The notes under the pieces are model-generated. The model was not told the origin of the DNA and made no database searches. It worked only from the letters and a program-made list of their open reading frames with translations. From Escherichia phage Ecwhy_1, in the sequence record MH791411.1: 64,000 bases of DNA; one strand, written 5' to 3'. The position numbers and the translations under genes were made by a program. Below are positions 264-61,909 of the stretch, one piece after another. Each line of letters starts with the position of its first letter. The first letter of the stretch is position 1.

Positions 264-458
264 TTATTCGGTTGGTACAAACATGACAATGTGTGCCTGA
301 ACGACTCTAGTACCATCTACCAGTACAAGACCATTGGGACAAACATCAGATACTGCACCAGTTACCTTAAATCCACCAGTTAGGTAGAAGTCATAGATAA
401 CATTACGCTCAATTGTAAAAATATCACTCATATAAATTCCATAAGAAAAGGGATTCAT
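264..458 (-). CDS. hypothetical small protein (64 aa)
   Basis: ORF immediately downstream of nrdB on same strand; no recognisable motif. Confidence 0.3.
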   Translation of the reverse strand: MNPFSYGIYMSDIFTIERNVIYDFYLTGGFKVTGAVSDVCPNGLVLVDGTRVVQAHIVMFVPTE

Positions 459-479: not shown

Positions 480-1604
480 TTATAGTTTAAATGGCGAGAA
501 TGTATCTCCTTGGATATCATTCACAATACCACCAATGATATAAGAACTGATTTCAGTTTCTTGTGGTGCTACCTGTACAGAACTACCACTTACCCAGTGT
601 TCAGTCCACGGTAGTGGGTTACTCTTGGATACAGTATATGGACATTTGATACCAAGTGCAGTCATACGCTTAGAACCAATCCAGCGAACATACTGTTTAA
701 GAATTTCAGAGTTCAATCCAATAATAGAACCATCTTTAAAGAGGAAATCTGCCCATGCTTCTTCTTGGCGAATAGCAGACATAAACATTTCCAGTACTTC
801 ATCATAGCACTCTTCGGCAATTTTTACCATATCTGGATCTTCTTTCTTTAGAAGACGTAAAATCATTTGTGTTGCTGCGAGATGAAGGTTTTCATCACGA
901 CAAATTAGACGAATAATCTTTGCATTACCTTCCATGAGGTTGTTCTCTGCAAATGCCCATGAACAAGCAAAACTAGCATAGAAACGAACACCTTCAAGAA
1001 TGTTAATACTATTCAAACATAACCATAGTTTTTTCTTTAGATCATACATATTAATTTCAATAGTTTTACCATTAACAGTATGAGTACCTTCACCTAATGC
1101 ACGATACAATGTTCCTAGTTCATCAAGGTCATCATAGTATTTTGAAACATCAGCAGCACAATCAGTGATTTCTGGAATGTCCAACATAGTATCAAAAACT
1201 TCAGATGGATTAGGATAAATGTTACGAATAATATGTGTATATGATTTACTATGAATAGCACCTTCAAAGAACGCCCATGTTTCAATAAAGTTTTCAAGTT
1301 CAGGTAGAGATGCATATGGTAGTAGCATTAGATTAGGACCACGACCTTGAACTGAATCAAGAAGGATTTGACGTTTTAAGTTTGATGTAAAGATATGCTT
1401 CTCAGAATCATTGAGGTTAGCAAAATCAATTTTATCTTTAGATACGTCAACTTCACCTGGTGTCCAGAAGAAACTTTTCTGTTGTTCAGTTAGTTTTTCA
1501 AGTGCAGAGTATTTGTTACTTTCAAAGCGTTGAATATCAACACTTTCATCAAAAAACATATTCTTTTCTAGGTGAGACTTCTCATTAATTTTGAAAACTG
1601 ACAT
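480..1604 (-). CDS. nrdB: ribonucleotide reductase class Ia small (beta) subunit
   Basis: 374 aa; di-iron/tyrosyl-radical R2 signature regions (e.g. ILEGVRFYASFACSWAFAE, RDENLHLAATQMI); size matches NrdB. Confidence 0.92.
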   Translation of the reverse strand: MSVFKINEKSHLEKNMFFDESVDIQRFESNKYSALEKLTEQQKSFFWTPGEVDVSKDKIDFANLNDSEKHIFTSNLKRQILLDSVQGRGPNLMLLPYASLPELENFIETWAFFEGAIHSKSYTHIIRNIYPNPSEVFDTMLDIPEITDCAADVSKYYDDLDELGTLYRALGEGTHTVNGKTIEINMYDLKKKLWLCLNSINILEGVRFYASFACSWAFAENNLMEGNAKIIRLICRDENLHLAATQMILRLLKKEDPDMVKIAEECYDEVLEMFMSAIRQEEAWADFLFKDGSIIGLNSEILKQYVRWIGSKRMTALGIKCPYTVSKSNPLPWTEHWVSGSSVQVAPQETEISSYIIGGIVNDIQGDTFSPFKL

Positions 1605-54851: not shown

Positions 54852-54939
54852 TATTTCAACTCTCCATGTTTTAAATCCAATAGGTACATTCCTTGTACCA
54901 TCAATGTTATTATAGCACCAAAAACGTCTTTGTCCCACG

Positions 54940-54947
54940 TATAAATA
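54940..54947 (+). promoter_or_regulatory. late promoter -10-like element TATAAATA upstream of first baseplate-module gene
   Basis: CACGTATAAATACATC ~36 nt upstream of ATG 54983; divergent from the sigma gene. Confidence 0.45.
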
Positions 54948-54982
54948 CATCAAATGTTCCCTTCTTATGGAGAATCAAAAAG

Positions 54983-55714
54983 ATGATTGATCGTAGAATC
55001 CGATTAAGACCTAAAACCGCAGGTGCTAACTATGTGTATGGTGATTTTGGCAACAGTTCAGAACCAACATTGCTATCGTTTCTGCGTCCAACAAATGGTT
55101 TGGTTTGGACTGTAACCCCAACTGTAACTGAACAAAGGTCGGTTCAATATGAAACACAGTCCCCTATACATACTAACAGTAACTACAACAACTACAAGAA
55201 TACAACAAACACTGTTTTCACTATTCAAGGTGAGTTTTATGCGAACACTGCTGCTGAAGCAATGTATGCATTGGCTTGTGTTCATTTTATTCGTTCCGTG
55301 TCCTTAATGGACTTTGGTCGTCAAGCAGCATCTGCTAATAATCCCGAACTAGCAATTGCAGGTGCACCACCGCCAATTTTACTATTAAGTGGGTATGGTC
55401 GTTATACATATAATGATATTCCTGTTATTTTGAAAGCATATAATTTTACATATCCAAATGATGTTTCTTACATTCAGGTTCCATTGAATAGTAGTGATAG
55501 TACTTTTAATTTATCTGATATGGATAGTCGTAAATTCTTCGAACAGCTTAGAAGTACTGGATATATGAATCCACAAGATGAGGTATGGGTTCCACAGAAA
55601 ATATCGGTAACGCTTCAACTTGAAGAACAACCAACATCTGATTACATGACTAAAAAGTTCAACCTAAATGCATTTAAGCGTGGTGAACTATTACGTAATG
55701 GAGGATTTATCTAA
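54983..55714 (+). CDS. putative baseplate/tail-tube-associated protein (gp48/gp54-like?), tentative
   Basis: Start at MIDRRIR with GGAG RBS; first gene of plus-strand late module. Confidence 0.45.
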   Translation: MIDRRIRLRPKTAGANYVYGDFGNSSEPTLLSFLRPTNGLVWTVTPTVTEQRSVQYETQSPIHTNSNYNNYKNTTNTVFTIQGEFYANTAAEAMYALACVHFIRSVSLMDFGRQAASANNPELAIAGAPPPILLLSGYGRYTYNDIPVILKAYNFTYPNDVSYIQVPLNSSDSTFNLSDMDSRKFFEQLRSTGYMNPQDEVWVPQKISVTLQLEEQPTSDYMTKKFNLNAFKRGELLRNGGFI

Positions 55715-56039: not shown

Positions 56040-58295
56040 ATGGCAGATTTACAAAGTTCTGTTGATAATTTTAAAAATGATATTTCAAACATCACAAGTT
56101 CTGCAAAGGCAGCAAAAGAAACTGCAACAAGTACTATTGAAAGCTTAAAAGCCACTGCTAATACTTTGCAAAATGATCTTGAAAAAGTAAAAAACAATTT
56201 TAAAGCTAAGGTTAGTAACGTACAGTCTTTACCAAAGCAAAGTGCAAGCGTTGACCAAGTGTATGAAGACTTGGATCTAAGTGAGTTTGTTATTCCTTAT
56301 GACAATAAATTGTTAAAGTATGACAATCCAACTTGGCACTTTTCCCTTTTCGCATTAGACAAGGATGATTTCAAAAACTTCTGGCTTTACCCAGATGCTG
56401 AAGTTCAACGTCATGTCATCTCTGAAAGTGGTGTAACTGGAAAGTATAATATCACAAGTGTTCAGATGACGCAAGCTGGTCCTTCAACTCCAGGGATGAC
56501 AACCAACTATTGCTTCAACACAGCAGTACTGAACCTTTCAGAAAACAATAGTATGAGTTTATATGATGAACTAATTTCTTTAAGTAATAAACTAAGGTAT
56601 CATAAGTTCATGGACTTACCTTTAATATTAGAATTGAAATTTATTGGATTCAATACTAATGGTGTACCTGAAACTATACCAGAAACAACTCGTAAATGGT
56701 CCGTGAAGATTAACAGTGTTACCGCTAGTGCATCACAAAGTGGTAGTACTATGATGTATTCTATGAGTCTTGTTCATAACCGTACTGCTCTAGTGGATAA
56801 CGTTGAATGGACTCTTAAAGAACCATTTAACTGCACAGCAGAAAACTTTGGTGATTTTTGTTTTGATTTGGAAGATAAATTGAATCAAATGGCAGACCAA
56901 CAATATGGTTATTTGCGTTATAAATTTGGTGAGTTAGCAGAAGGGAAGTTCTTTGAATTTAAAGTTGCACCAGATTTACAGGATTTGTTTATAAACTATG
57001 ATTCTAAACAGATGGCAGAAGCTGGAGCTACAAAAAGTGGTGCACAGGGTTCTAAAAACTTTTCATGGAATCCAAGTACTCCAATTTCTCGAATTATCGA
57101 TGACGTAATAGATACCTGTACTGTACAGGCTGATGATAGTACTAGTGTTCGTCAATTTGTTAATATAATCCCACTTAAACAGTATGTTGGATTTGATAAT
57201 TACCGAAACACGTCAGTTTATAAAGTTGTTTTCTATATAGTTCGTTTTAAAATTGGTGATATTGTTCATGAATCCGATTTACAGCCAGAAAACTTTACAT
57301 TTGAGTATTTCTTTGAAAATGCCGAGAAATATGTAGACCCAAATGACCAAAAACCAAAGATTAACATGAAAACTTACAATTATCAGTTTAGTGGACTCAA
57401 TAGTGAGATTCTAGACCTTGATTTGAAGTTTGACCAGCAATTCTTTGTGGCTACAACTCGTAACCCTGGACCAATACAGGATGTTGCTAACCACGCTGGT
57501 ACTCATACCTCCCAAGAATTGAATATACAAGGGGTTCAGTACAACAGTATACCAGATGCATGGGCAAAAACAAGTGATTTACGCGTTACACGTGATCTTG
57601 GTGGTATGTTAACACAGGCCCAGGAACAACTACTCAATAAAGTTGAAACTTTAGCAAAAGAACAAATGCAAGTTGGTAATGCTGAAGAACAGGATCGTTA
57701 TAATAACTATCAAGTAAACGTTCTACCACAGTATATTGAAGATTATGTAACCACATATGAAGAAAATGACGGTGGAACCGATGGAATTGGTCATCGATAT
57801 GGTGAAGTGTTTACAATGCCGACTGAAGCAACAAATAATGAAACAACATTGTCTGCATCATTGAACGATAACAGTAGCACATATGAAATGGATCGCCGTA
57901 AAATTCGTGACAACTATTACAATCGTCCATTCTTGTGTAAATTGGATATGCGTGTTGTTGGTGACCCATTCTGGTTGGGTTGGAGTGATTATTCATATAT
58001 CCAATATCTTGAACAGGTAATTAATGGGGAAGATATGGAAATTAATCCCGAAGATTACCATGTTGCTAACTATATTACATCTGAAGCATATCTTTTATTG
58101 AAATTACAACCTGTGGTTTCTATAAATGATAATACTGGTGTTCTTGATATTAATACACCAACTACATTTAACCAAACTGTATATCGTGTTAACAAAATTG
58201 TTCATGATTTTGGTGCAGGTGGTTCATTTACACAACAAATTCAGGCTGCAATTGTAATTCGTGCACTCAAACGTCACGATAGTATAATTGAATAA
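56040..58295 (+). CDS. putative baseplate hub/structural protein (751 aa)
   Basis: Large ORF directly upstream of the gp5-like spike gene; GGAG RBS. Confidence 0.5.
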   Translation: MADLQSSVDNFKNDISNITSSAKAAKETATSTIESLKATANTLQNDLEKVKNNFKAKVSNVQSLPKQSASVDQVYEDLDLSEFVIPYDNKLLKYDNPTWHFSLFALDKDDFKNFWLYPDAEVQRHVISESGVTGKYNITSVQMTQAGPSTPGMTTNYCFNTAVLNLSENNSMSLYDELISLSNKLRYHKFMDLPLILELKFIGFNTNGVPETIPETTRKWSVKINSVTASASQSGSTMMYSMSLVHNRTALVDNVEWTLKEPFNCTAENFGDFCFDLEDKLNQMADQQYGYLRYKFGELAEGKFFEFKVAPDLQDLFINYDSKQMAEAGATKSGAQGSKNFSWNPSTPISRIIDDVIDTCTVQADDSTSVRQFVNIIPLKQYVGFDNYRNTSVYKVVFYIVRFKIGDIVHESDLQPENFTFEYFFENAEKYVDPNDQKPKINMKTYNYQFSGLNSEILDLDLKFDQQFFVATTRNPGPIQDVANHAGTHTSQELNIQGVQYNSIPDAWAKTSDLRVTRDLGGMLTQAQEQLLNKVETLAKEQMQVGNAEEQDRYNNYQVNVLPQYIEDYVTTYEENDGGTDGIGHRYGEVFTMPTEATNNETTLSASLNDNSSTYEMDRRKIRDNYYNRPFLCKLDMRVVGDPFWLGWSDYSYIQYLEQVINGEDMEINPEDYHVANYITSEAYLLLKLQPVVSINDNTGVLDINTPTTFNQTVYRVNKIVHDFGAGGSFTQQIQAAIVIRALKRHDSIIE

Positions 58296-58308: not shown

Positions 58309-60972
58309 ATGGCAGATACAAGTAAGAAATATGCCCAACAACAGTTGGGTCGTTTTGACCCTTCGTATCCACAACTAGCAACCGTGATGGATAACCGTGA
58401 CCCAACTAAATCCGGTAAGCTAAAAGTGTGGATTCAAGGTTCACAAAGTGATAAAAATTCAAAAGAGTCATGGATTGAAGCATCATACATGTCTCCATTC
58501 GCTGGTAAAACTCCAGGGATACCAAGTGCTGATGCTTATGGTCAATATCCAAAGGGATATGGTTTTTGGGCGGTTCCACCTGATGTCGGATGTACTGTTG
58601 TTGTTATATTTGCACAAGCAAGAACATTCCAAGCGTATTGGATTGGTTGTGTTTATGACCAACGTATGAATACGATGGTTCCTGGGATGGCTACTGAAAT
58701 AAGCAACTATGCTGGTACTGATATGCCATTACCCGTAACTGATTATGACCGTAATACAATTTCTACCAGTACTCAAGACAAATATGCAAACGTTCCAATT
58801 ATTGCAGGTCTGAAAAAACAAAACTTACTTTATGATGAGGAAGCGGGTGTTGCTAACCGTAGCAGTACTCGCCAGACCACCAGTACTGTTTATGGTCTTT
58901 CCTCACCTCGTGGTAACAGTTTTATTATTGATGATGGTTACACAGAAGAAGAATTAACAGCACCTACATGGGATCAAGATCCAGATGGTTATCAGGATAC
59001 CCAATTCAATAACCCAGTGAACGATACTCGTGTTGGTTCTCGTAAAAATGAAGGCGTTGTAATTAAAACACGTAGTGGTGCACAGTTGTTGTTATCTGAA
59101 GCCTCTGGTGATGTTCTTTTAATTAACCGTGATGGTACTGCACGTATTAAATTCACTGGTGAAGGTGATATTGAAATGCACTGTGATAAGAATATTAACA
59201 TTCGTGCAGGTCAAGATATTAACATGGTTGCTGGACGCTCATATAATATTGAAAGTGGAGCAGACTTCAATGCTCGTGTTGGTGCAAACACTAAACTAGA
59301 TTTGGTTGGTGCATTGGATGCTAAAGTTGGTGGTCAGGTTGTTATTAACGCTGGAGCAGATTTACGTTTAGTAACAGCAGCTTCATTACGTATGCAAAGT
59401 GGTAGCAGTACTGATATAACTGCTGGTTCTAATGCGTCAATCTCTGCTGCTACCAGTGCTAATCTTATTGGTTCTTCATCAGCTATTATTAGTGGTGGTG
59501 GTCAAACTCTTACTGTTAACAGTGGTGGTAATAGTGGTACTGCTGAATTTAATGCACCAAACTTCCGCACCCCATCTGCTGGCTTGAATGATCATATACA
59601 TGATATATCGGCTTGGGTTGATGCTGAGAATCACGGCAGTACTGTTGAACCTCCACGTCAAGGTGGTGGTAGTGGGAATAGTGAATCCCCAGTTCAACCT
59701 GAACCTGCTAATGATGTAGCTCCAACTTTAGCTCCAGTACAGGACACTGAAGCAATTCAATATGTAAATTATACAACAGAAACAGAACAAGTTCAAACAC
59801 AAGATTTAATGACTTCTGATCCTGGTATGACTGGTTATAGCATTACGTATGAAGGTCTTCATATGTTCATGCCGTGTAGTGGAACCATTCGCCAATACGG
59901 TTATTGGGGGAAAGGTGTCCCGACTAGTGGTGGTGGTAAAGCTGATAGAAGTGGCTGGGAAATACAGTGCAAGGGTGATGTTGTAGCTCCAGATGGCGGT
60001 GTAGTTGTTATCACTAATGGTGCTTTATTGGTTCAACATAAGTCTGGATATAAATCTGTATTTTATAATATTCAATCAGATTTGCTCAATAAAGACGTTG
60101 TTCAAAAAGGTCAAGTTATCGGTAAAGCTAATGGTGTTATTCAATTTGAAATAAGAGTTACCTCTGCCAACGTACTAGGATTTAGTGGTTCAGTTGACCC
60201 TGGATTATTCTATGCATCCCAGACTGGTACAGGTTCTGAAGCGGGAAATAAAACATTAATTGCAGGACAAGCAACGAACCAAGCAGCACCGAAAGCTGTT
60301 GTTCAACCTTCTGTTGATAGTGATGAATTAGTTGTAACAACTAAAATTAAAACTATCGGTACTGGGTATTCTCAACGTGGTTCTCGTCATGTCCCTCGTC
60401 GTAGAAGAACACAACGTTCAGGTGGTACTCCAGCACCCACTGCACAAGAATCATACAATGTGGGTAATGTTGATAAGACTGCAATTGATTGGAAAGTTGT
60501 TCCAGGTGATTCACAATTTATTTCTGAATTGAAAGAATATGAAGGAACAATGGCGTATCAACAAGCTAAAGGATATTACCGCAATGGTAAATTCTGGAGA
60601 TATTTGGACAGTCGTGGGTTCCCAACCATCGGCTACGGACACTTGATCGTTGGTGGTGAAAACTTCTCTGGTGGGATTACCGAACAGGAAGCCAATGATA
60701 TGTTGGTGCGTGATAGTAGTAAGGCTATATATGACGCAAAATCCATTTACGCTTCTTATAAGATGAAAACACCTTACATGGCACAACAAGTTCTATGTCA
60801 AATGGTATTCCAGATGGGTAAAGGTGGTGTAATGAAATTTAAGTCAATGCTATCTGAAATGGCTAAAGGTAACTACAAGCAAGCTGCTGCTCAAATTCGA
60901 AATTCAGCTTGGTATCGTCAAACTACACGCCGTGCTGAATTAATGGCACGTAGATTAGAGGCATGTCAATAA
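58309..60972 (+). CDS. baseplate central spike protein (gp5-like) with beta-helical repeats, M23-like domain and C-terminal T4-type lysozyme domain
   Basis: 887 aa; Gly/Ser-rich repeats (VGANTKLDLVGALDAKVGGQVVINAGADL), M23-like beta segment (GWEIQCKGDVVAPDGGVVVI...), C-terminal GFPTIGYGHL...MVFQMGKGG...SAWYRQT lysozyme signature. Confidence 0.75.
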   Translation: MADTSKKYAQQQLGRFDPSYPQLATVMDNRDPTKSGKLKVWIQGSQSDKNSKESWIEASYMSPFAGKTPGIPSADAYGQYPKGYGFWAVPPDVGCTVVVIFAQARTFQAYWIGCVYDQRMNTMVPGMATEISNYAGTDMPLPVTDYDRNTISTSTQDKYANVPIIAGLKKQNLLYDEEAGVANRSSTRQTTSTVYGLSSPRGNSFIIDDGYTEEELTAPTWDQDPDGYQDTQFNNPVNDTRVGSRKNEGVVIKTRSGAQLLLSEASGDVLLINRDGTARIKFTGEGDIEMHCDKNINIRAGQDINMVAGRSYNIESGADFNARVGANTKLDLVGALDAKVGGQVVINAGADLRLVTAASLRMQSGSSTDITAGSNASISAATSANLIGSSSAIISGGGQTLTVNSGGNSGTAEFNAPNFRTPSAGLNDHIHDISAWVDAENHGSTVEPPRQGGGSGNSESPVQPEPANDVAPTLAPVQDTEAIQYVNYTTETEQVQTQDLMTSDPGMTGYSITYEGLHMFMPCSGTIRQYGYWGKGVPTSGGGKADRSGWEIQCKGDVVAPDGGVVVITNGALLVQHKSGYKSVFYNIQSDLLNKDVVQKGQVIGKANGVIQFEIRVTSANVLGFSGSVDPGLFYASQTGTGSEAGNKTLIAGQATNQAAPKAVVQPSVDSDELVVTTKIKTIGTGYSQRGSRHVPRRRRTQRSGGTPAPTAQESYNVGNVDKTAIDWKVVPGDSQFISELKEYEGTMAYQQAKGYYRNGKFWRYLDSRGFPTIGYGHLIVGGENFSGGITEQEANDMLVRDSSKAIYDAKSIYASYKMKTPYMAQQVLCQMVFQMGKGGVMKFKSMLSEMAKGNYKQAAAQIRNSAWYRQTTRRAELMARRLEACQ

Positions 60973-61009
60973 ATATTTCAGTACTATAAATAATAATGAG
61001 GAAATCTTT

Positions 61010-61498
61010 ATGAGTAAATGGGAAATCAAAAATACCGACGAACAATTTTTTAAAGAAATTAAAGAATTTGAAGGTACTATTGCGTATCAGAAAAAACTTG
61101 GTTATTTTAAAAATGATAAGTTTTGGGTATATAAAGACAGTCTAGGTCTTGATACCATTGGTTACGGTCACCTTGTACTTAAGGGTGAAAGTTTCAAAAA
61201 TGGACTCACTGAAGCAGAAGCTGATGCTCTCCTTATAAAAGATGCTCAGACCGCTTACAATGACGCAAAATCAATCTATGATCAATTTGGAATGACTGCT
61301 CCAGTACAGGTTCAGCGTGTATTGTGGTTTATGGTGTTCCAAATGGGTAAATCAAAAGTTTTAAATTTCAAAAAAGCGATGGCTGCTCTCGGTCGTGGTG
61401 ATTATAAAACTGCTGGTAAAGAAATGCGTGATAGTTCGTGGTACAAACAAACCACATCCAGAGCGGAGAAGATGGCTCGCATCGTCGAATCCGTATAA
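61010..61498 (+). CDS. T4-type lysozyme (GH24 muramidase), standalone
   Basis: 162 aa; EFEGT, LDTIGYGHL, MVFQMGKSKV, SSWYKQT match T4 lysozyme catalytic/signature regions; paralogous to the spike C-domain. Confidence 0.8.
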   Translation: MSKWEIKNTDEQFFKEIKEFEGTIAYQKKLGYFKNDKFWVYKDSLGLDTIGYGHLVLKGESFKNGLTEAEADALLIKDAQTAYNDAKSIYDQFGMTAPVQVQRVLWFMVFQMGKSKVLNFKKAMAALGRGDYKTAGKEMRDSSWYKQTTSRAEKMARIVESV

Positions 61499-61513: not shown

Positions 61514-61909
61514 ATGGCAATTGTTTTTAAAGGTTTTTCAACTCCAGTAGTTGGAAGAACTGAAACATTGTATGACAGTGAATTGGTTCGTCAGGATTTA
61601 ATGAATCATTTCAATACAAAAAAAGGTGAACGTGCATTTGATGCTGATTATGGGTTCATTGCGTGGGATTTGCTATTTGAATTGGATGGTTATAATACAA
61701 TCAACCTTTTGGAAGCAGATGCCCGTAGAATTATTAGCTTGGACCCACGTTTAAGCTTAAAGAAACTTCAAATATCAAGAATTGAGTACGGTTATCAGAT
61801 GGATATAGTACTTGAATATGTTGTTCTCAATACTCTTGAAGAATTAACTATAGTTTTTGATGCAAGAAGTAACAACAGAATGGCTACCTATTCTGTATCA
61901 TCTTTGTAA
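61514..61909 (+). CDS. baseplate wedge protein gp25-like (GPW/gp25 family)
   Basis: 131 aa; KKGERAFDADYGFIAWDLLFE resembles gp25 core; followed by gp6-like gene. Confidence 0.7.
   Translation: MAIVFKGFSTPVVGRTETLYDSELVRQDLMNHFNTKKGERAFDADYGFIAWDLLFELDGYNTINLLEADARRIISLDPRLSLKKLQISRIEYGYQMDIVLEYVVLNTLEELTIVFDARSNNRMATYSVSSL

Follow-up and report, generated by a model that had tools for sequence, protein, structure and literature searches.

How does a contractile-tail spike carry its cell-wall hydrolase when the enzyme does not sit where T4 gp5 holds it? The question is raised by an 887-residue gp5-like reading frame, followed by a small lysozyme gene, in the window, the 64,000-nucleotide stretch of Escherichia phage Ecwhy_1 DNA (MH791411.1) analysed here. 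Both reading frames had been described in a first-pass annotation and are present exactly as it gave them, with the quoted peptide strings verbatim. They also coincide with annotated coding sequences of the Asteriusvirus phage vB_Ec-M-J of Escherichia, to which the window is 99.3% identical in DNA; published Asteriusvirus genomes show 84–99% identity to the window at the DNA level. The genes lie in a baseplate block with the order gp53-like/751-aa protein/spike/lysozyme/gp25/wedge. The 887-residue protein probably forms, as a trimer, the central spike in the contractile tail of a PBECO4/121Q/Rak2-like jumbo coliphage, an Asteriusvirus, and has a C-terminal cargo and an old solo paralog.

Domain order of the spike and its family

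The family census covered 85 homologues of the window spike, the family-level Pfam scan 22, and the spike was modelled with AF2 as a monomer (pTM 0.48). The proposed gp5-like order of OB fold, beta-helix, M23/LytM fold and C-terminal T4-type lysozyme was borne out by several methods (Table 1). PF04717 was matched in all 22 homologues, and the OB fold would dock the spike to the hub or tube, a role taken by analogy from T4 gp5 and P2 gpV. The region that follows, residues 117–270, is the most conserved segment of the family, with a mean identity of 70% to the window protein, and has a pLDDT mostly of 47–74 in the AF2 monomer. The Pfam match to the DUF2345/VgrG helix begins at residue 278. Profile matches of the beta-helix include VgrG1 (4uhv, E 5.6e-5), further VgrGs, a phage central spike (8kea) and a T4-like spike (9f4a), and AF2 models the segment as an extended chain with a pLDDT of 85–94 in the monomer. 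The designer repeat proteins 'Cake' and 'Scone', which topped this profile search, were rejected as artefacts of summed ~4-bit matches to 'INRDGT' turns.

Table 1. Features of the spike locus in window coordinates; aa numbers refer to the 887-residue spike unless another protein is named.
Feature	Coordinates	Strand	Basis
751-aa virion structural protein, conserved neighbour upstream of the spike	56040..58295	+	PHROG 11190
Baseplate central spike/tail lysozyme gene, 887 aa, 95.5 kDa	58309..60972	+	ORF; CDS EcMJ_321 in vB_Ec-M-J
N-terminal OB fold, aa 23-116	58375..58656	+	Pfam PF04717 (Phage_base_V), E 8e-7
Highly conserved middle region, aa 117-270, no fold assigned	58657..59118	+	Family alignment, AF2
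Ser/Gly-rich beta-helix, VgrG/gp5 type, aa ~271-425	59119..59583	+	Pfam DUF2345, profile search
H429-I-H431 (HxH) motif directly after the helix; putative metal 'histidine cage'	59593..59601	+	Residue census
Acidic linker 1, aa 446-512, pI 4.05	59644..59844	+	AF2, alignment
Degenerate, catalytically dead M23/LytM domain, aa 513-636	59845..60216	+	Family scans, PDB profile, fold searches, census
Basic linker 2, aa 637-727, pI 10.1	60217..60489	+	Alignment
C-terminal GH24 T4-type lysozyme domain, aa 728-887, E745/D767/T773	60490..60972	+	Pfam, alignment
TATAAATA, late-promoter-like motif in the 37-nt spike-lysozyme spacer	60985..60992	+	Limited to own subgroup
Standalone GH24 lysozyme, 162 aa, pI 9.2, no export signal, E21/D43/T49 of the solo protein	61010..61498	+	ORF, Pfam, paralogy with spike C-domain
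gp25-like baseplate wedge protein, conserved 3' neighbour of the solo lysozyme gene	61514..61909	+	Pfam PF04965, E 1.5e-8

Domain annotation thus places an M23-like fold in the spike and the lysozyme outside the conventional gp5 position. The first-pass annotation called this order unusual, which is true relative to T4 gp5 but not within the Rak2-like homologues, where it is the rule (85/85). Two orthologues, phAPEC6 gp241 and CBB_240, are virion proteins by MS. The closest published relatives have orthologous genes of equal length and identical domain order, likewise in gp53/751-aa/spike/lysozyme/gp25 synteny, and nothing essential differs. The difference from gp5 and a possible central M23 domain had already been noted for phage CBB in 2017 (PMC5259590). 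The architecture is mostly known, and it is conserved across Rak2-like jumbo phages.

What goes beyond the literature is that the LytM domain is catalytically dead family-wide yet as well conserved as the lysozyme, that the HxH motif is internal, and that the cassette of dead LytM and lysozyme is found in this spike family only. Neither the family-wide inactivation of M23 nor the invariant internal HxH is reported in the publications found on these phages. Our literature search returned no paper on a degenerate LytM domain in any phage spike and no cryo-EM structure of a Rak2-like baseplate. Long proteins that end in a lysozyme of this subtype (P0123 and others), considered as candidate spikes without LytM, match Pfam in the lysozyme only. 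The baseplate of Staphylococcus phage 812 was set aside as a comparator that is not relevant.

The gp25-like gene keeps its place in all nine loci examined. Upstream, the 751-aa protein gave no Pfam, PDB or NCBIfam match and no detectable gp27 homology; its phAPEC6 counterpart, gp240, was found by MS, and from synteny we would guess that it is a candidate hub partner of the spike. The annotated genes between spike and wedge include no PAAR gene.

The internal HxH motif and the degenerate LytM domain

The HxH behind the helix is invariant in all 85 homologues, in a segment (residues 426–445) with a mean identity of 43%. The Fe-binding Apex domains of spikes are recognised by their HxH motif (bioRxiv 10.1101/2023.02.25.529910). 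In the window spike HxH would likewise form a metal-binding apex, yet it lies 456 residues before the C-terminus, and an apex is topologically awkward as a sharp tip when so many residues come after it. Alternatively, the motif could be an in-register clamp like that of tail fibres (bioRxiv 10.1101/2023.02.25.529910). The segment has no sequence match to the apex domains of gpV and gp138. The internal position of HxH is at odds with the usual assumption that the motif denotes an apex at the C-terminus, which makes this spike family a good target for cryo-EM.

With the single sequence, Pfam reports Peptidase_M23 at residues 550–607 with an E of 0.003 and 18 bits, under the 28.7-bit cut-off. We accepted this match only once it was backed by the family-level scans, by the profile search of the PDB and by two fold searches. 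PF01551 was matched by 19 of the 22 homologues (best E 7e-10), and a profile of the middle domain retrieved M23/LytM chains from the PDB with E <= 0.06 (SpoIIQ, LasA 1.8e-5; DipM; EnvC). An M23/LytM-like segment without the catalytic HxxxD and HxH had been proposed for the spike, and the fold is indeed present while both motifs are absent. Alignment with intact M23 by hhalign maps N587, V610 and Q612 onto the three histidines of the latter, and these columns hold His in 0/85 homologues. The HxxxD positions, located by visual inspection of the alignment and of the Pfam range, are R547 and E551 in the window spike; 5/85 homologues have the His and 2/85 the Asp. H577, E614 and R616, which belong to the scaffold, are kept. 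The few homologues with the first His or the Asp, together with this scaffold, favour a domain that is still a peptidase by way of non-canonical residues. However, the three canonical positions vary freely across the family (D/G/N; V/I/T; E/Q/T/N and others) and a 7-residue loop is deleted before the former M23 HxH, so that such activity is close to refuted.

Despite its lost active site, the LytM domain has a mean identity to the window protein of 58%, compared with 57% for the lysozyme. Among 1.84 billion representatives, the cassette of dead LytM and lysozyme was confined to this spike family; in remote relatives of the spike, the C-terminus holds different wall hydrolases, among them an intact M23 (97.7 bits). 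The linkers on either side differ in character. Conservation of linker 1 is low (39%) except at A467, D469, V483 and D499, and AF2 predicts a small strand-helix element at residues 478–499. Linker 2 is distinguished by a conserved QRGSRxxP together with an RRRR run (residues 689–700), and AF2 gives residues 701–719 a pLDDT below 50.

The two lysozyme copies

Both copies have the lysozyme fold, with a Pfam match to Phage_lysozyme at residues 765–882 of the spike (E 2e-10), and the best PDB sequence matches are the gp5 lysozyme domain and T4L. The catalytic residues of spike and solo copies align with T4L E11, D20 and T26, and the Glu and Asp of the spike are kept in 84/85 homologues. In both copies a 13-aa insertion after the catalytic Glu lengthens the Glu-to-Asp spacing, and both are without T4L residues ~35–50. 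By its sequence, the spike GH24 muramidase looks active.

The downstream gene had been described as a duplicate that resembles the spike domain over some 60 N-terminal residues. It is a true paralog, but the likeness extends over the whole 159-aa module, since spike residues 728–886 align with solo residues 4–162 at 50% identity (E 7e-57) without gaps. The duplication looks old rather than recent, because orthologues are closer (59–61% identity) than paralogs (49–53%) and, in an NJ tree, none of the solo copies pairs with the spike domain of the same phage. Deep support in this tree is weak (bootstraps 1–48%), so the tree was used only for the lack of own-spike pairing, alongside the identity tables. 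XaC1, fHe-Yen9-03 and three metagenomic lineages have the solo gene, whereas three others lack it, which looks like patchy loss.

The solo protein is probably an active soluble muramidase; its orthologue LysUE1 of phage UE-S1 (90% identical) is active in vitro. LysUE1 was expressed, reduced turbidity and CFU and was muralytic in vitro (PMC12805682). No signal or TM segment was detected in the solo lysozyme. Its gene would be co-expressed late with the baseplate genes, and the protein is most likely an auxiliary endolysin that works from within the cell and not a component of the virion. A second endolysin needs justification, because a separate SAR-type endolysin, CBB_187, with homologues, is already predicted in these phages (PMC5259590). 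Instead of a lysis enzyme, the solo lysozyme might be provided in trans as a part of the baseplate or hub, or as an assembly factor. Consistent with this are the other predicted endolysin and the strict synteny between spike and gp25 genes in very divergent lineages, with spacers of 3–35 nt, mostly 10–13 nt. Yet the solo gene was lost in three lineages that keep the spike, and its product is unconfirmed in any Rak2-like virion proteome; orthologues are unreported for CBB and phAPEC6 virions. This absence is weak evidence, since the adjacent gp25-like product (presumed gp243) is also missing from the phAPEC6 list. On balance we regard a baseplate role as distinctly unlikely. The TATAAATA motif was rejected as a dedicated late promoter of the solo gene: it is unconserved in other genera, and its count across the whole window is not above chance.

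A model of the needle and its alternatives

In the mechanism that we propose, the N-terminal OB fold would seat the spike on the tube or hub, and the VgrG/gp5-type beta-helix, closed by the HxH metal clamp, would be a rigid needle that sheath contraction drives through the outer membrane. The cell-wall module would follow behind the apex as C-terminal cargo, held by two flexible linkers much as in 'evolved' VgrGs. This cargo would consist of the catalytically dead LytM domain and then the active-looking GH24 muramidase, which, once periplasmic, would cut glycan strands and allow passage of the tube. The dead LytM domain may serve as a non-catalytic binding module. Docking of the enzyme on peptidoglycan stem peptides is a plausible but tentative role for it. 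Binding or regulation of a protein partner, be it the lysozyme of the spike or a hydrolase of the host, is possible though on the unlikely side, and a structural role takes up what remains of our expectation. To our knowledge, the characterised dead LytM domains (EnvC, NlpD, DipM and SpoIIQ) all bind proteins and not peptidoglycan, which weakens the stem-peptide idea.

The partner could lie within the spike itself. The LytM domain might mask the tethered lysozyme until deployment, or pack with linker 1 back along the helix, which would put the cargo at the base of the helix, its place in T4 gp5, and leave the tip sharp. LytM and GH24 always occur together as one cassette, in this family only, and are equally conserved; the strand-helix element of linker 1 is conserved and moderately confident; and linker 1 (67 aa) should span back along the 155-aa helix, an estimate scaled from the dimensions of T4 gp5C. 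The T4 gp5 lysozyme is likewise held within its complex, as Kanamaru reportedly found in 2002. Infection also depends on spike diameter (bioRxiv 10.1101/2023.02.25.529910). Against these points, the reasoning is purely geometric and the model is a monomer of pTM 0.48, and we consider an intramolecular partner unlikely. Still more doubtful is a mimic of EnvC or NlpD, in which the spike delivers the dead LytM to the periplasm, where it binds and de-represses the host amidases AmiA/B/C or other autolysins, so that host enzymes cut the wall peptide and the phage lysozyme the glycan. Equally speculative is the idea that contractile-tail needles come in a third design, with neither a PAAR cap nor a terminal apex, in which the metal-clamped HxH apex is followed by tethered cargo and the dead LytM acts as an EnvC/NlpD-like switch that gates its own lysozyme or hijacks host amidases at the puncture site. 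If such a switch acts on host amidases, this would be the first case of a virion that delivers an activator of host autolysins.

The C-terminal half (residues ~446–887) might also be removed in maturation, as a chaperone of assembly or trimerisation or as a released enzyme, leaving a mature spike that ends at the HxH apex like P2 gpV. HxH normally marks a C-terminal apex (bioRxiv 10.1101/2023.02.25.529910). Both linkers are predicted to be disordered, and linker 2 holds the conserved QRGSRxxP/RRRR. T4 gp5 itself is cleaved during assembly. However, the phAPEC6 and CBB lists give the full predicted mass, without peptide positions, and the CBB proteome supplements record presence or absence. The lysozyme catalytic residues are strongly conserved, which argues for function at infection, and removal of the C-terminal half appears highly improbable.

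The proposed needle, with its cargo behind the helix, has partial counterparts in known systems. T4 gp5 has the OB fold, GH24 lysozyme and triple beta-helix in common with it, and in T4 the spike lysozyme likewise has a soluble paralog (T4 lysozyme, gene e); the paralog gene of the window spike adjoins the spike gene. The order in gp5 is OB-lysozyme-helix, whereas that of the window spike is permuted to OB-helix-(LytM)-lysozyme, so that the GH24 domain follows the helix instead of lying between it and the OB fold. The helix is C-terminal in gp5, with a blunt, PAAR-capped end, but internal here, and only the window spike has the extra dead LytM domain. T4 gp5 lacks HxH and has a PAAR tip (bioRxiv 10.1101/2023.02.25.529910), whereas HxH follows the helix of the window spike. 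P2 gpV and phi92 gp138 share the OB fold, the beta-helix and an HxH right after the helix, as compared with our monomer models. In gpV, however, the apex is the C-terminus (residues 191–211 of 211), whereas the window spike continues for 456 residues beyond HxH.

'Evolved' VgrGs of the T6SS, such as the peptidoglycan-degrading VgrG-3 of V. cholerae, share the DUF2345/VgrG helix, a linker and a C-terminal cell-wall hydrolase, a resemblance of design and not membership. They have a fused gp27-like N-terminal module, whereas the window spike starts with the OB fold and has no gp27/VgrG N-terminal Pfam match. They also belong to a secretion system, while the window spike belongs to a phage virion and has HxH and a dead LytM before the cargo. 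As this clade shows, the T4 gp5 arrangement is not the sole way of mounting a lysozyme on a spike, and the enzyme can also trail the tip, as it does in evolved VgrGs. Correct annotation is the practical value.

EnvC, NlpD, DipM and SpoIIQ reside in the bacterial periplasm or forespore, where their partners are amidases, lytic transglycosylases or SpoIIIAH. They rank near the top of the structural matches of the LytM domain and have equally lost the Zn and catalytic residues, but identity to them is only 19–24%. Conserved yet catalytically dead, the LytM domain of the spike makes a clean candidate pseudoenzyme of the virion, and its candidate partners (peptidoglycan, phage lysozyme, host autolysins) are within reach of simple biochemistry. 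The phi29 tail-knob enzyme gp13 also combines a lysozyme with a following M23 domain; there, both are active and, unlike those of the window spike, not fused to an OB/beta-helix spike.

Architecture of the spike and its locus

The spike and the solo lysozyme belong to a known phage clade, in which they are conserved and have been described before. In phage CBB, Buttimer et al. 2017 (PMC5259590) described the trio CBB_238 (gp25-like), CBB_239 (T4-type lysozyme) and CBB_240, an 894-aa protein with the gp5 OB domain at its N-terminus, lysozyme at its C-terminus and an architecture unlike gp5; as annotation, the finding is therefore already known. Only 238 and 240 of the trio are confirmed virion proteins, and the predicted endolysin is a distinct protein, CBB_187, with TM, LysM-like and lysozyme domains (PMC5259590). 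In the phAPEC6 proteome gp238-241 are listed, among them the spike (95.9 kDa). Missing from that list are gp242 and gp243; to judge from gene order, these should correspond to the small lysozyme and the gp25-like protein.

The window closely matches jumbo myoviruses in the genus Asteriusvirus: identity is 99.3% (6 kb) with Escherichia phage vB_Ec-M-J, and 84% with PBECO4, phAPEC6, slurp01 and related genomes. The baseplate block is ordered 243-aa virion protein, gp53-like wedge, 751-aa virion protein, spike, lysozyme, gp25-like protein and large wedge. The first-pass annotation was correct in its observation and interpretation: both reading frames are present exactly where it placed them, the OB, helix, LytM-like and lysozyme order holds, and the dead LytM domain and lysozyme paralogy are borne out below. 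T4 gp5, in contrast, runs OB, lysozyme, helix. Profile matches of the beta-helix include VgrG1 4uhv (E 5.6e-5), other VgrGs and the phage central spikes 8kea and 9f4a.

Features of the spike locus (nt, window positions; aa, protein positions)
Feature	Position	Strand	Description
Spike ORF	58309..60972	+	887 aa
Solo lysozyme ORF	61010..61498	+	162 aa
OB fold	aa 23-116		PF04717, E 8e-7
Conserved middle region	aa 117-270		mean identity to window protein 70%; pLDDT low
Beta-helix, VgrG/gp5 type	aa ~271-425		DUF2345 signal from aa 278; pLDDT 85-94
HxH	aa 429-431		invariant, 85/85
Linker 1, acidic	aa 446-512		pI 4.05
LytM-fold domain	aa ~513-636		Pfam, profile and structure matches
Linker 2, basic	aa 637-727		pI 10.1; disordered 701-719
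QRGSRxxP, then RRRR run	aa 689-700 (60373-60408)		within linker 2
13-residue insertion, spike	aa 747-759 (60547-60585)		
13-residue insertion, solo	aa 23-35 (61076-61114)		
751-aa virion protein	56040-58295		directly 5' of spike
ORF of 243-aa virion protein	54893-55714		mechanical call from TTG 54893; published annotation from ATG 54983
TATAAATA	60985-60992		18 nt 5' of solo-lysozyme ATG
TATAAATA	54940-54947		36 nt 5' of ATG 54983

The basic linker preceding the lysozyme is variable except for QRGSRxxP, in which G691 is invariant and S692 and P696 are kept in at least 90% of homologues; with the RRRR run it may mark a site of cleavage or binding. The 751-aa protein has counterparts (678-814 aa) immediately 5' of the spike in six of seven homologous loci from other contigs; the seventh contig stops a short way 5' of the spike. 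The 751-aa protein has a coiled-coil-like region at its N-terminus and no homology in Pfam, PDB or NCBIfam, and is a candidate gp27-like hub partner. The TATAAATA motif, a T4-type late promoter consensus, occurs six times across the window against seven expected, no excess over chance, and the site upstream of the solo lysozyme is not conserved in other genera. The ATG 54983 start is favoured because the motif there falls within the TTG extension.

The LytM-fold domain

Against the window protein alone PF01551 scored 18 bits only (cut-off, 28.7 bits); at the family level it was matched by 19 of 22 diverse homologues, with a best E of 7e-10. PDB chains found by the domain profile at E <= 0.06 were M23/LytM only (SpoIIQ and LasA at 1.8e-5, DipM, TagE, zoocin A, EnvC). 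In Foldseek, the domain as modelled by AF2 (aa 505-645, pLDDT 86.7) retrieved LytM domains: DipM (E 1e-6, TM 0.69) and EnvC (TM 0.64/0.69), followed by ShyA, lysostaphin and LytM. Three approaches thus uphold the proposed M23/LytM-like fold.

The proposed absence of the HxxxD and HxH catalytic histidines was likewise confirmed, by hhalign and by a census of 85 homologues. Aligned by hhalign to the intact spike-borne M23 of P0105 (motifs HPGVD, YGHM, HCHFE), the spike has N587, V610 and Q612 opposite its three histidines and lacks a 7-residue loop. The HxxxD positions are taken by R547 and E551. Histidine occurs at the three C-terminal catalytic positions in none of the 85, while the first His is kept in five and the Asp in two. 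These former catalytic columns vary freely; H577, E614 and R616, which belong to the scaffold, scarcely vary at all. Judged by its residues, the domain has lost its catalytic machinery. Mean identity to the window protein is 58% for this domain versus 57% for the lysozyme, and such equal conservation argues for a maintained pseudoenzyme rather than decaying sequence. M23 domains are common elsewhere in phage, in tape measures, hubs and internal proteins.

An old pair of lysozymes

Solo aa 4-162 align without gaps to spike aa 728-886 (50% identity, E 7e-57). The downstream gene does parallel the spike C-domain, as proposed, across the whole module rather than the ~60 N-terminal residues first noted. 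Alignment of the catalytic Glu, Asp and Thr found the T4 lysozyme triad in both copies (spike E745/D767/T773; solo E21/D43/T49). Compared with T4 lysozyme, both carry 13 extra residues following the Glu and lack its residues ~35-50; these indels, common to the two copies, place them as each other's closest relatives. Separating the catalytic Glu from the Asp-bearing strand, the insertion is partly helical in the AF2 model, and is 7 residues shorter in XaC1-type spike domains; Glu-Asp spacing is 22 residues in both lysozymes versus 9 in T4.

The local duplication proposed for the muramidase module stands as paralogy of the adjoining gene, and is evidently not recent. Orthologues (solo-solo 59%, spike-spike 61% for the window against fHe-Yen9-03) are closer than paralogs (49-53%), and none of the solo copies groups with its own spike domain in an NJ tree of weak support. 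The ~880-980-aa spike architecture was found in all 85 full-length homologues, among them those of GAP32, pEa_SNUABM_50, fHe-Yen9-03, XaC1 and many metagenomic phages. A solo lysozyme lies between spike and gp25 in fHe-Yen9-03, XaC1 and the metagenomic P0077, P0078 and P0084 (three divergent lineages), and is absent from P0076, P0079 and P0085. The simplest reading would be one old duplication of the spike C-terminal module into the adjoining position, followed by losses.

When 1.84 billion representative proteins were scanned exhaustively, the complete cassette of dead LytM plus GH24 turned up in only 8 clusters, all 870-984-aa spike proteins; among the matches listed, the remainder were the lysozyme part alone, except one 84-aa LytM-region fragment. 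Where the N-terminal spike module occurs in remote relatives, the C-terminal modules differ, such as a fully canonical M23 in P0105 (97.7 bits) and a GH19-like segment just below cut-off in P0099. C-terminal wall-hydrolase cargo thus recurs as a design, with T4 gp5 the exception in the wider family.

Substitutions at Thr26 of T4 lysozyme alter its reaction chemistry. The matching residue (T773 column; window 60625-60627) is Asp in 19 of the 85 spike homologues in alignment A4, and these lineages may therefore differ in product or mechanism. In the divergent P0085 (locus L004, 400-3153) all three spike catalytic residues are lost (Glu to Asp, Asp to Arg, Thr to Val); with no standalone lysozyme gene either, this baseplate module appears to be without active muramidase.

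Proposed roles and the internal HxH

The spike would act as a needle piercing the membrane, its GH24 domain being peptidoglycan-cutting cargo set behind the tip, as in evolved VgrG, and its dead LytM domain a binding module without catalysis. The solo lysozyme would be a soluble paralog, expressed late, and probably an auxiliary endolysin. It has no hydrophobic export segment; LysUE1, its 90% identical orthologue from UE-S1, lyses cells permeabilised with EDTA when purified (PMC12805682). What the present sequence comparison would add to the published description is that the LytM domain is catalytically dead throughout the family and under purifying selection, that an internal HxH is invariant, that the cassette is confined to this spike family, and that the solo copy is old and patchily lost. 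A dead LytM domain serving as a virion-delivered regulator is speculative.

H429 and H431 are invariant among neighbouring residues (20) that average 43% identity. In a study of P2 gpV, HxH was the sole universally conserved spike feature: in the Apex domain, three copies form a cage around an Fe ion, HxH near the C-terminus serves to identify an apex, and spikes without HxH carry a PAAR protein (10.1101/2023.02.25.529910). Here, in contrast, HxH lies 456 residues before the C-terminus, and a sequence search of the spike matched no known apex domain. Either the apex would be internal, the chains running on as tethered cargo, or HxH would clamp the chains in register, as happens in tail fibres. 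Six remote relatives (P0091, P0098, P0099, P0103, P0104, P0105) have R(V/L/M)PxHEP(W/F)xxH after the beta-helix in place of HxH, lengthened to HENL(N/D)P except in P0105. Their C-terminal modules differ (intact M23 in P0105, GH19-like in P0099), and the shared motif may be another metal or tip motif.
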